Source: Escherichia coli
GTDB lineage: Bacteria; Pseudomonadota; Gammaproteobacteria; Enterobacterales; Enterobacteriaceae
Assembly: GCF_041248615.1 (NCBI RefSeq)
Contig: NZ_CP158426.1
Strand: one strand, 5' to 3'
DNA length: 64,000 nt
Made by a program: the position numbers. This document shows positions 34,901 to 40,900 of the stretch, one piece after another (the stretch's first letter is position 1; each line of letters opens with the position of its first letter).

Positions 34901-37900
34901 ACGGTATCGGTGATTCAGGCAAATCAGGGAAAAATTAATGTGATGCATAGCTATCATTCGCTGGGGCGGGTATTACGCGATGCTGGTTTTCGCTTTCCGC
35001 CGCTGATTGAGAGCATTCCTGAAGGTGGGCGAATGGATGTGAGCGCAGAGCGTTTACCTGAACTGGATGCCGATTTTGTTTTTGCAACCTGGCGCGGTGA
35101 CACCGGTGGTAAACCTCAGGATGAGCTGGCAGCAATGGAAAAAGTCATGCCGGGATGGTGTCAGTTTCTGACGGCCTGTCGTTCCGGGCGCTATGTGCTG
35201 ATTTCTCGTGAAGAGGCGATTTCTAACTCCTTTGCATCTCTGGGGCTGATGGCTGCGCAGATACAATCACAAATTGCGGGACGACCTCTACCGGAGGCTA
35301 AATGATCCAGAAAGACAAAACGCGGGTTGATATTTATGGTGAGCGTTTTCGCACTCGCGCGAGTCAGTTAACGCCTGGGTTAAGAACTGTCGCAAGCTAC
35401 ATTAATGAGCATCGTGAAGTGGTACTCGAGCAAACGGCGATGGAAATTGCGGCCACGTTGAACACTTCCGATGCCACAGTTATCAGGGCTATACAGGCTC
35501 TGGGGTTTGCCGGGCTGCGTGATCTGAAACGCACACTGGAACAGTGGCTTGGTCCAGCCCTTAGTTCCAGCGAAAAGATGTCTACGACGGTGAGTAACTT
35601 GACGAGCGATGTTAACACCGCAATCGACTTTGTTCTTGAAGGGCATTTGTATACTTGTAATGTCCTGTCAGAGCCTGAAAACCGCCACGCGCTTGCGCAA
35701 GCTGTAGCGTTGTTGGTGCAGGCACGGCAAGTCGCTATTTTTGGCATTGGCGCTTCGGGTATCCTGGCGGACTATACCGCACGACTATTCAACCGCATAG
35801 GTTTGCCTGCCACGGCACTAAACCGTACGGGTATTGGCCTTGCCGAGCAACTGATCGCGCTTCAACGTGGCGATGTTCTGATCATGATGGCGCAAAAATC
35901 TGCGCACCGGGAAGGGCTGACAACGCTTCGTGAGGCGAGGCGGCTGGGGATCCCTGTTATTTTGCTGACAAACGCGCTGGATTCACGTTTTAGCAAAGAC
36001 GCCAGTATCGTGATTCATGTTCCGCGCGGGGATGAAAAGGGGAAAACGCCACTACATGGTACGGTATTGTTGTGCCTGGAAATGATTGTTTGGTCGGTGG
36101 CTTCCGCGATGCCGCAGCGTGCGGTTAAAACCATTAAGCGAATTAACGATTTCCATCGGGGTTTGAAAACGGGAAGAAAGAATGGCTAATCTGACCTGAG
36201 GCCGGTAGCAACACCGGCCTCTTTTCAGGAATGTTAAATCCCCGGTTGCAGAATACGGATATTCATCTCCAGCACGTCGCCTTTTACGGCTTCGCTGTAC
36301 GCCTTCATGTGCGGGGTTTGCAGATGCGCTTCAAGATGCGCGATGCTTTCCCACTGCTCAATCATCACGATAGAATCCGGTGCCATAGACTGGAAACTCA
36401 CGCCAGCAGCGCAATCCACCATTGGCGCATAGCCGTGGCAACCTTCTTCTTTCAGTACGGTTGGAACGATTTTAGCAAACTGATCCAATACTGCCTGACG
36501 GTGATGTTGACCAGGACGAGTACGGATTTCTGCGATTACGGTAAGCATGGTTAACTCCTTCTAAAGCCTGAGCTCTAGTTAACCAAAAATTTCCACAAGA
36601 TGCTTGCGATATTCTTCAGTATAGCGGGGAACATCAGGCATTTTTATCACGTCATTAGCGATAAATGTCGGCAGCGGTTCCATGCCAAGGAATTGGTTTG
36701 CTTTATGGAACGGCAGATACACACCGTCAACGCCAACGCCGTGGAAGAACTGATCTTTTTCGGTGAAGGCTTCCATTGGTGCGTTCCAGGTCAGAGAAAG
36801 CATATATTTTTTGCCCTGTACCAGGCCGCCGGAACCGTATTTTTTCGACGGATCTTTGCGGGTACGACCATCGCTGGCATACAGCGTCCCGTGACCTTCG
36901 GTGAATACATCATCAATGTATTTTTTCACTGTCCACGGCGCGCCCATCCACCAGCCTGGCATCTGCCAAATCACCACATCAGCCCAGAGAAAGTTTTGTA
37001 CTTCCGCTTTGACATCGTAGTCGCTGTCGGCGCGAACGATGCGGACATCATGCCCGAGGTCGCGCAGTGTGCCATCCGCGACTTCGGTCAGGGTGTCGTT
37101 CAGTTGACCATTGGAGTGGGCGAATTTTTTCGCGCCGTTGATAATCAGGATGTTGCTCATTTTTTAACCTCAAGGTGAGACGTTTGTCGACTATAGTACG
37201 TCACAGAGCGGTACGGTGAAATTAGCAAAATGTGCAAAGTCTTTTGCTAATTTAGCAAAAGTCTGATCTTGCTCTGACTCACCGATGCAGGATAAATATT
37301 TTCTGAAAATGACAATACTGATAGCAATTTCTCATCATTCCAACTAGCACAGGGTTAATTTACAACGTTGGTGTGGACTTTCTGCGAGTTGATAATTGTG
37401 GTGATGCTGCCAACTTACTGATTTAGTGTATGATGGTGTTTTTGAGGTGCTCCAGTGGCTTCTGTTTCTATCAGCTGTCCCTCCTGTTCAGCTACTGACG
37501 GGGTGGTGCGTAACGGCAAAAGCACTGCCGGACATCAGCGCTATCTCTGCTCTCACTGCCGTAAAACATGGCAACTGCAGTTCACTTACACCGCTTCTCA
37601 ACCCGGTACGCACCAGAAAATCATTGATATGGCCATGAATGGCGTTGGATGCCGGGCAACCGCCCGCATTATGGGCGTTGGCCTCAACACGATTTTCCGC
37701 CATTTAAAAAACTCAGGCCGCAGTCGGTAACCTCGCGCATACAGCCGGGCAGTGACGTCATCGTCTGCGCGGAAATGGACGAACAGTGGGGATACGTCGG
37801 GGCTAAATCGCGCCAGCGCTGGCTGTTTTACGCGTATGACAGGCTCCGGAAGACGGTTGTTGCGCACGTATTCGGTGAACGCACTATGGCGACGCTGGGG

Positions 37901-40900
37901 CGTCTTATGAGCCTGCTGTCACCCTTTGACGTGGTGATATGGATGACGGATGGCTGGCCGCTGTATGAATCCCGCCTGAAGGGAAAGCTGCACGTAATCA
38001 GCAAGCGATATACGCAGCGAATTGAGCGGCATAACCTGAATCTGAGGCAGCACCTGGCACGGCTGGGACGGAAGTCGCTGTCGTTCTCAAAATCGGTGGA
38101 GCTGCATGACAAAGTCATCGGGCATTATCTGAACATAAAACACTATCAATAAGTTGGAGTCATTACCCACGCTCGTTATTTGTTTGGTTTGTGGTTGGTG
38201 GCTTTTTTGGGGACGGTTTATATTTTGCTAATAGTAAAATCTATGAGAGTCGTTTTAACGGCTCTCATAGACAGAGAAGTTACCAGCTCACCTTCGCCTC
38301 AAATCCACCTTGTTCCGCATTCCCAAACTCAACATTCATGCCATGCAATTTGGCGATTCGCTGGACAATCGATAGCCCAAGTCCACTGCCGGTAGCGGTT
38401 TGTCCGGGTGGGCGATAGAAGCGTTCGCCAATTCTCGCCAGTGCCTCTGGCGTCACACCGGGGCCGTTATCCCTCACGATGAAACTATCGGCATTCAGCG
38501 TGACGTCCACCACGCTGCCCTGTGGACTGTAGCGCACGGCGTTATCCAGAAGGTTTCGTACCAACAAACTTAGCAACAGCGGTTGTCCGGTGCGTTTGAT
38601 GCCGTGGGCATTGAGTGTCAGTCGCACGTCAATTTTCGCCTGCTGCGCCGTGTGGTAAATATCCATCACCGATGATTGCAGGAGATCTTCAAGCGGGATC
38701 TCCGCGACGTCCTGAAGGTTATCCAGTGAGTCCAGCCGCGATAGCGTGAGCAGTTGATCAACCAGACGAGTAGCACGATCGATTCCGGAATGTAATTGAA
38801 GCAGCGCTTTTTTCCGCGCCTGCGGATCATCGTCAGAGAGCTGCGCAACTTCGGTTTGCACTTTCAGCGCCGTTAACGGGCTACGAAGTTCGTGAGCTGC
38901 GTCGGAGGTAAAGCGTCGTTCTCGAACCATCATCGCATGTGTGCGGGCGAACAGTTGATTCAACGACTCAACCAGTGGACGCACTTCGCTGGGTACGCCC
39001 GTCGCGTTTAGTGGTTTTTCCGAGTCAGGGTCACGCATACGTAGTGCCAGCGCCAGTTTGTTCAGCGGCGCGAGTTCACGACCCAGTAGTACCATCATGA
39101 TGATTAACATAATCGGCAGTGCGACAAGCCACGGGATCAATTGCCCTGCAACAATCGCCAGCGCCATGTCTTCGCGGTATTCCCATTCCTGACCAACAAC
39201 GATGCGATATTTGCCATCAGGTGAGGTCATCCAGACAAAACGCCAGGGATCGTCTTCACCGACCAGTTGCCCGTCAGCAAAACCTTCCCGTTGATAGCTA
39301 TAGGGAATATCTTCTCCGTTATCGCCATCGTTAAGGACCATTCTGCCGTCGTGGGTAAAGATGGCAAAGGTTAGCGCATCGTCATCAACATGACCGTGTT
39401 TTAATTTATTTGGCGTCTGTGCCATGCGATCTGCCGCGTTGATTTCGTTGAGATCGAGCGTACTTAACCGCTTGGCAAACAGCATCAGTTGGGTGTCGAA
39501 CAACTCATCGACGTTATCCGTTGTTTGTTTCCAGGCGACAAAGCTGGAAAGCAGCCAGGTCACTGAGGCCAGAATTAAAAAGATTAGCGTCAGCCTGACT
39601 CGCAGACTAAGACGTTGGGTAAATTTCATTTCTCACCTAATGTGTAGCCAATACCATGAACGGTACGAATAAAATCACTGCCGAGTTTGCGTCGCAGATG
39701 ATGCACATGCACTTCAACGGCATTACTGGTGACCTCTTCGTCCCAGGTATACAGTTTCTCTTCAATCAGTTTGCGCGGCAGTACCCGACCAGCGTTACGC
39801 ATCAGTAATTCCAGCAGGGCAAATTCTTTTGGTTTCAGAGTTAAGGGTTCGCCAGCCAGCGTGGCGATACGTTTGCCGGGGTCGAGCATGACGTTACCGT
39901 GGCGCAGTTCGTTGCTGGCCTGGCCGTTGGTTCGGCGCATCAGAGCTTCCAGCCTGGCGGCGACTTCTATCAACGCAAAAGGTTTACACAGATAATCGTC
40001 AGCTCCCAGACGCAGCCCCTCTACACGTTCCGCTAACGCATCGCGCGCGGTCAGGATCAGTACCGGCTCACGCTGACCTTTTTCTCGCCATTCGCGCAAA
40101 ATATCGCGACCATCCATGCCTGGTAAGGTTAAATCCAGGATCACCGCATCATAAGGCGCACTATATAGCGCCTCTTTTCCCTGACGACCTTGTGTAAACC
40201 AGTCGACGCTAAAACCCATTTTACTAAGGCCCGTTTTGATGCCGTCGCCAATCAGCATGTCATCTTCTATCAGTAAAATTCGCATTTTTTCATCCCTGCG
40301 ATAACCGTATTTGCTGCCAGTAAACCGTGTTGTAACGCGCTCTGTACAGCATTAAATTTTATTTTTTTCCCTTAAGAAGTTGTTAAGGACTATCTTGTTA
40401 AATGCTCGGAAACAGACATTAAAGGGAGTAATAAACATGAAAAAATTCGCAGCAGTAATCGCAGTAATGGCCCTGTGCAGCGCACCGGTGATGGCAGCAG
40501 AGCAGGGCGGTTTTTCTGGCCCATCGGCAACGCAAAGTCAGGCCGGAGGATTCCAGGGGCCGAACGGCAGCGTAACGACCGTAGAAAGCGCAAAATCCCT
40601 GCGTGACGACACCTGGGTAACCCTGCGCGGCAATATCGTTGAACGCATCTCTGACGATCTCTACGTGTTCAAAGATGCCAGCGGTACTATCAATGTTGAT
40701 ATCGACCACAAACGCTGGAACGGCGTGACGGTGACGCCGAAAGATACGGTTGAGATTCAGGGTGAAGTCGATAAAGACTGGAATTCTGTTGAAATTGACG
40801 TCAAACAGATCCGCAAAGTAAATCCGTAATTGTTACCGCTCCCGGGACACATTCCCGGGAATAATTTCGCAGGGAGGCAAAATGACAAACCTGACACTGG

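Follow-up and report, generated by a model that had tools for sequence, protein, structure and literature searches.

An intact copy of the insertion sequence IS1 in the 64,000-nucleotide stretch of Escherichia coli DNA analysed here (the window, corresponding to positions 832001-896000 of NZ_LT599825.1, from strain NRZ14408) stands in place of 384 base pairs (bp) that are present in an otherwise collinear relative. The missing DNA takes in 82% of the coding sequence of ygiZ, a gene located between mdaB and qseC, as well as its start codon and the region of its promoter, and the strain carries a ygiZ null allele. The breakpoints of the deletion are exactly defined, synteny is retained on both sides, and the allele is private to the strain. 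We consider the most likely origin of this arrangement to be an adjacent deletion promoted by IS1, in which an element that had inserted earlier underwent intramolecular target-primed transposition, and assign this route a probability of about 0.7.

An IS-free reference for the locus was found by joining the two flanks of the element without the IS1 and searching with the resulting 1,233-bp query against 5,426 complete E. coli genomes, the set used for all the genome counts below. The best match, CFSAN061763, contains both flanks at 100% identity in two pieces that together span 1,617 bp. Exact matching places the end of the left flank at L001:2100 and the start of the right flank at L001:2485, leaving 384 bp between them. 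The ygiZ gene of this relative is annotated at L001:2219-2548 and encodes a protein of 109 residues (WP_001551659.1), and the missing segment comprises the 118 bp upstream of the ygiZ ATG together with codons 1 to 88.7. At 33% G+C, as against 51% for the window, the deleted DNA is AT-rich. What remains of the gene is a fragment at 38168..38231 (+ strand), made up of the last 20 codons (38169-38228) and the stop codon (38229-38231), with neither a start codon nor a promoter. Its frame (38169-38231) translates to TLVICLVCGWWLFWGRFIFC followed by the stop, and all 20 residues and the stop coincide with the C-terminus of CFSAN061763 YgiZ. The fragment lies on the same strand as ygiZ, converging on qseC, and full-length homologues of the protein carry a precomputed match to PF10840 (DUF2645). 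RefSeq annotates no feature between IS1 and qseC, leaving the ygiZ remnant unannotated. The original prediction, an earlier reading of this DNA, had placed ygiZ between mdaB and qseC in K-12, had supposed the gene to be lost here, and had suggested that a hydrophobic frame ending at 38229-38231 might be its remnant. The gene order in MG1655 is indeed mdaB, ygiZ, qseC, the alignment to the IS-free relative makes the loss exactly 384 bp, and the hydrophobic frame is the precise C-terminus of YgiZ. The flanks might instead have proved contiguous in an IS-free strain, with no gene missing; in CFSAN061763 they lie 384 bp apart.

Comparison by BLAST of the whole window with 41.6 kilobases (kb) of CFSAN061763 gives two collinear blocks, 20856-37403 on the left (16.5 kb at 99.1%) and 38168-58800 on the right (20.6 kb at 98.9%), which are interrupted between them only by the exchange of IS1 for the 384 bp. 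The left block runs 4 bp into the element because the deleted DNA also begins with GGTG, a 4-bp microhomology at the left breakpoint that is common to the IS1 end and to the start of the missing segment. This two-sided collinearity rules out an inversion, a translocation or an exchange of flanks with a distant IS1, and identifies the event as a local deletion without rearrangement.

The element itself is a complete IS1 of the IS1B type, 768 bp in length, at 37400..38167 (+ strand), as defined by its open reading frames, its termini and the RefSeq annotation. The termini are imperfect repeats of ~23 bp, with the left inverted repeat (IRL) at 37400-37422 (GGTGATGCTGCCAACTTACTGAT) identical at 18 of 23 positions to the reverse complement (GGTAATGACTCCAACTTATTGAT) of the right inverted repeat (IRR) at 38145-38167. 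Within the element, the insA reading frame occupies 37455-37730, the A6C frameshift site is at 37706-37712, and insB' continues as an open frame as far as 38152. RefSeq describes the product as an 'IS1-like element IS1B family transposase' with a programmed frameshift, intact and without a pseudogene flag, and the full 768 bp is 90.4-99.9% identical to the IS1A, IS1B and IS1 copies of nine other E. coli. Length and inverted repeats, the A6C site for a -1 programmed frameshift joining insA to insB', and nucleotide identity thus all place the element in the IS1 family. The direct target duplication of 8-9 bp is the one family feature not found: the 9 bp on the left (37391..37399, GATAATTGT) differ from the 9 bp on the right (38168..38176, CACGCTCGT). 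Such an absence is expected after an adjacent deletion and so does not count against the identity of the element. The two flanking 9-mers are also the deletion breakpoints. The left one runs on into GGTGTTGAATAAC... in CFSAN061763 and the right one is inside ygiZ, with the junctions reading TATGTATTCACGCTCGT directly joined to IRL and IRR directly joined to GATAATTGTGGTGTTG. The completeness of the 768-bp element, with both inverted repeats, insA, insB and the A6C site, and the disagreement of its flanks had already been recognized from the sequence, and every coordinate and number then given holds.

A megablast search with positions 36800-38800 of the window (a 2,001-bp query) gave a full-length match at 100% identity in a single genome of the 5,426, that of NRZ14408 (NZ_LT599825.1, 868800-870800). 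Relatives with 99.8-99.9% identity are IS-free and have an intact ygiZ. The occurrence of the allele in one genome and the IS-free state of its close relatives argue that the event is recent and private to the strain. We take NRZ14408, which serves as a reference in tests of antibiotics, to carry mcr-1 and KPC-2. The strain is named in papers on darobactin analogues, on mcr-type colistin resistance and on KPC-2 plasmids.

IS1 copies in the mdaB-qseC interval are present in 12 of the genomes, including NRZ14408, and we inspected representatives of the other 11. Most of those inspected are simple insertions. In C10 and GPEC1040 the element lies 131 bp upstream of mdaB with the duplication CGATGCAGG, and in the enterotoxigenic E. 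coli (ETEC) strain H10407 (equivalent to SEC470) it is at the 5' end of ygiZ with the duplication AAGCATTGC. The 3' part of ygiZ is interrupted in F829 (duplication TATTCTCG) and in S1 (L013 1504-2271, duplication CGAGTTTTG). HH107 and 1449 have IS1 in hcp, with the duplications AAATTTTT and CTGAAAATG, and the genome designated OXA-181 has it in the gene downstream of hcp. Since simple insertions in the interval carry duplications of 8-9 bp, the absence of one in the window is meaningful. R2 (NZ_CM143107.1, L012 2434-3201) has an IS1 at the left junction of the S1 copy, here with no duplication, and on its right side the ygiZ tail, qseC, qseB, ygiW and ygiV are deleted, into mqsR. The R2 and S1 elements are different variants (90.4% and 99.1% identical to the window copy), and the shared junction means either that the same site was hit twice or that one of the copies was converted. 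The S1/R2, F829 and NRZ14408 junctions represent three events within ~25 bp at the 3' end of ygiZ. The interval as a whole is nevertheless not demonstrably an IS1 hot spot. A rough hand estimate, in which 5,425 genomes have ~60,000 IS1 places on their chromosomes (~11 per 5-Mb chromosome) and the interval measures 1-1.8 kb, gives 12-22 expected cases under uniform insertion; 12 were observed, with no overall enrichment.

Intramolecular target-primed transposition is known to generate adjacent deletions in which the remaining element has no direct repeats, and this outcome is typical of IS1 and Tn9 (PMC9330008, section 5.2.1). By such a route, IS1 would have inserted into the AT-rich mdaB-ygiZ region of an NRZ14408 ancestor. 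One end of the element would then have attacked a second site close by on the same molecule, with loss of the 384 bp in between and of one of the two 9-bp repeats made by the original insertion. The outcome would be a single intact IS1 with unrelated flanks and a ygiZ null allele, with mdaB-ygiN, qseBC and the qseC terminator left structurally untouched. We infer the order of these events, the movement of one end, and transposition rather than recombination as the cause. The observations behind this reading are an intact IS1 that has no duplication, flanks that are in the same orientation and 384 bp apart in CFSAN061763, and conserved synteny. R2, in which an IS1 without a duplication is again accompanied by loss of adjacent DNA, at the junction seen in S1, provides a parallel. 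Two steps suffice for this route, an insertion and a later transposition. The original prediction had preferred an adjacent deletion or recombination between two copies to a simple insertion, and the 384 bp missing between flanks of 100% identity bear this out.

The arrangement has the same features as the adjacent deletions described for IS1/Tn9 and for IS26, namely an intact element, one ancestral flank, a new nearby junction without direct repeats, and loss of the intervening DNA with orientation and synteny kept; no mechanistic difference from these is visible. The window case differs in being natural and strain-private, in a clinical isolate, and without an intermediate. Relative to the simple insertions in C10/GPEC1040, H10407, F829, S1, HH107 and 1449, it shares the IS family, an AT-rich target and, for the copies examined, the orientation to mdaB; those insertions have duplications of 8-9 bp and have lost no DNA, whereas the window copy lacks both a duplication and the 384 bp. 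R2 shares with the window the unduplicated IS1 and a one-sided adjacent loss that starts in ygiZ, but its deletion runs for kilobases away from mdaB, takes the QseBC two-component system and starts at a different site. The ygiZ-less lineages of the Yu5 type resemble the window in having lost ygiZ while keeping mdaB and qseC, but they have no IS and other breakpoints, and their loss is lineage-wide rather than private.

Several points weigh against adjacent deletion as the route. The final product would be the same if two direct IS1 copies had recombined, the original junction cannot be told from the new one, and the case is based on one deposited assembly, without reads. Further, a precursor allele with IS1 at either window junction and a duplication of GATAATTGT or CACGCTCGT is found in none of the 5,426 complete genomes. 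The leading alternative, which we judge unlikely while still taking it seriously, is that two IS1 copies inserted independently in direct orientation at GATAATTGT and CACGCTCGT, each with its own duplication, and that RecA-dependent homologous recombination between them then released a circle made up of one IS1 and the 384 bp, which was subsequently lost. The product of this process is indistinguishable from the one observed. In addition, IS1 has hit the 3' part of ygiZ more than once, in S1 and R2 at CGAGTTTTG, in F829 at TATTCTCG and, 4 bp further on, at the right junction of the window, which makes two insertions in one lineage conceivable. The process needs three events rather than two, however, and no genome in the set has two IS1 copies in the interval or a single IS1 at either junction. 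The NRZ14408 chromosome also matches the 2,001-bp query at only 8 places including this locus, which indicates few IS1 copies.

Two other explanations are remote. A collapsed repeat in the assembly, concealing either an IS1-384 bp-IS1 arrangement or an intact ygiZ with an IS1 nearby, is suggested by the single deposited assembly, flagged as linear, and by the fact that IS copies are classic sites of collapse, but is hard to reconcile with junctions that both fall exactly at complete IS1 termini and with the perfectly collinear 37 kb around them, and would need two direct IS1 copies 384 bp apart, as seen in no other genome. A 384-bp deletion that arose independently of IS1 and was later joined by an insertion exactly at the joint would fit the natural absence of ygiZ from ~15% of E. 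coli and the several structural alleles of the interval, but it demands that IS1 should by chance have hit that very position and, atypically, have made no duplication on insertion, no IS-free genome has the two flanks adjacent (joint ...GATAATTGTCACGCTCGT...), and ygiZ-less lineages such as Yu5 have different breakpoints and a 109-bp mdaB-qseC spacer.

The genes on either side of the deletion are intact. To the left, on the - strand, are mdaB (36579..37160; NADPH:quinone oxidoreductase) and, downstream of it, ygiN (36234..36548; putative quinol monooxygenase), both defined by reading frame and RefSeq annotation. Alignments show that 239 bp of DNA upstream of mdaB are retained (37161..37399), placing IS1 239 bp from the mdaB start at 37160. 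To the right, qseC (38280..39629, - strand; reading frame and RefSeq) ends 112 bp from the right end of IS1, and 71 bp separate the element from an intact terminator-like hairpin (38239..38272, - strand) that lies just 3' of qseC and is common to the 3' end of ygiZ. The original prediction had put these distances at about 240 bp and about 70 bp. Folding gives the hairpin a free energy of -23.9 kcal/mol (z = -5.6); a stricter scan for consensus terminators did not call it at 38239-38272, because its U-tract is short.

An effect of IS1 on the expression of mdaB-ygiN is unsupported rather than refuted, and we do not favour it. In alignments, the DNA upstream of mdaB is conserved to about -104 in all structural alleles of the interval, and to about -177/-184 in ygiZ-bearing and hcp-type alleles. 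The IS1, at -239, is outside this block, and the last ~55 bp of the retained 239 bp are an allele-specific segment upstream of ygiZ. With both the conserved block and the qseC terminator untouched, the proposed effect lacks support. Two other strains, C10 and GPEC1040, tolerate IS1 at -131. A consensus scan for promoters gave no outward site facing mdaB on the minus strand, its one hit being the inward insA promoter already known from IRL, and by eye the TTGGCA hexamer of IRL has no properly spaced -10 element in the flank with which it could form a fusion promoter toward mdaB. An indirect effect on mdaB through nucleoid proteins is conceivable, given the loss of AT-rich DNA.

The wider neighbourhood shows further variation. 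In K-12 parE is the immediate neighbour of ygiN. In the window the two are separated, at ~29000-36189 (L004 1-5390), by an accessory island beside the locus, which holds genes for a TonB-dependent siderophore receptor, an iron-siderophore ABC transporter and a MurR/RpiR regulator. CFSAN061763 has a 3.7-kb segment with dsbI, dsbA-dsbL-type and aryl-sulfate sulfotransferase genes between ygiD and ygiC (L014 362-4056), a position at which the window has only 34 bp (20822-20855) and lacks the segment. In HCP4S3_I4 the gene for an MFS transporter that comes next after ygiN is interrupted by an IS1 (L006 501-1268) whose flanks (...GAATGGAAAG / CGTTCGTGG...) again show no matching duplication. The qseB gene is annotated as a frameshifted pseudogene in the urinary isolate 02A16CRGN003 (L015 4460-5120).

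In K-12, ygiZ is a gene for an inner-membrane protein; BglJ-RcsB activates the gene from a mapped site that lies 65-68 bp upstream of its start site (PMC3950696), and its overexpression raises tolerance to sabinene (PMC7181518). The protein has three hydrophobic segments and a loop, NKYDWM-E-GD-ICS, that is conserved across genera. The segment deleted from the window is matched in 4,595 of the 5,426 genomes (85%), leaving ~15% without it, and in lineages of the Yu5 type the mdaB-qseC spacer is no longer than 109 bp. The gene is therefore lost frequently, and ygiZ is a dispensable accessory gene. Shigella-type contigs (L025 2501-2995) have a frameshifted YgiZ of 164 residues that reads on into the 3' end of qseC. 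This 164-residue form is found in many Shigella and E. coli contigs (268 blocks), and there are many other truncated or extended forms of YgiZ. The gene seems to have decayed repeatedly.

Many E. coli have three tightly packed genes in the mdaB-qseC interval, namely hcp (159 residues), a gene for a hypothetical protein of 236 residues, and ygiZ. In L015 (NZ_CM151387.1), for instance, hcp is at 1537-2016, the 236-residue gene at 2019-2729 and ygiZ at 2736-3068, and the same trio, with a middle protein of 236-240 residues, is present in L016, L018, L020 and L022-L024. It occupies the same mdaB-qseC site in Citrobacter, and it recurs in unrelated neighbourhoods in Pectobacterium, in a 75.6-kb record of Serratia and in Chania, there with gaps or overlaps of 0-4 bp; across all taxa these are 0-6 bp. 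The three genes are therefore tightly linked across taxa and contexts, as is looked for in an effector-immunity module of a type VI secretion system (T6SS). The 236-residue gene occurs in 1,262 of the 5,426 genomes (23%), as against 4,595 with the ygiZ segment, and its much greater rarity is what an effector would show if its immunity gene were more widespread and often orphaned. The K-12-type and ST38-type alleles have ygiZ and the ~180 bp nearest mdaB in common with the hcp-type allele; where the latter has hcp and the 236-residue gene, they have an unrelated stretch of 163-173 bp.

This gene context suggests, at close to even odds, that YgiZ is a T6SS immunity protein. A fuller version, which we offer tentatively, is that ygiZ may be the immunity gene of an undescribed Hcp-linked family of T6SS effectors of 236-240 residues, possibly lysozyme- or transglycosylase-like; the lone ygiZ of ~60% of E. 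coli, K-12 included, would then be an orphan immunity gene, and NRZ14408 would be a natural immunity-less target for the 23% of strains that bear the effector. Two known systems were considered and set aside. The published table of homologues of the pore-forming T6SS effector family Ssp6/Sip6 (supplementary file 3, PMC6889166) lists no E. coli despite the presence of the 236-residue gene in 23% of genomes, a judgement made from the table rather than by sequence comparison, and the hcp2B operon of avian pathogenic E. coli (APEC; PMC5874247) is at a different locus. A literature search found no paper containing 'DUF2645' and none linking ygiZ or DUF2645 to T6SS; the papers that mention 'ygiZ' concern BglJ-RcsB regulation, sabinene tolerance and screens, and none concerns T6SS.

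The finding is an ordinary one, a 384-bp deletion at an IS1 that has a textbook explanation, is confined to one strain and inactivates a dispensable gene. Its use is as a correction to the annotation, in which the ygiZ remnant is not marked, and as a clean natural example of IS1 adjacent deletion. The only part that goes beyond what is known is the contextual hint as to what ygiZ is for. Should YgiZ prove to act in T6SS immunity, one of the uncharacterized 'y-genes' of K-12 would gain a role that can be tested, and strains that naturally lack a working ygiZ, NRZ14408 among them, would be informative for the study of inter-strain competition.

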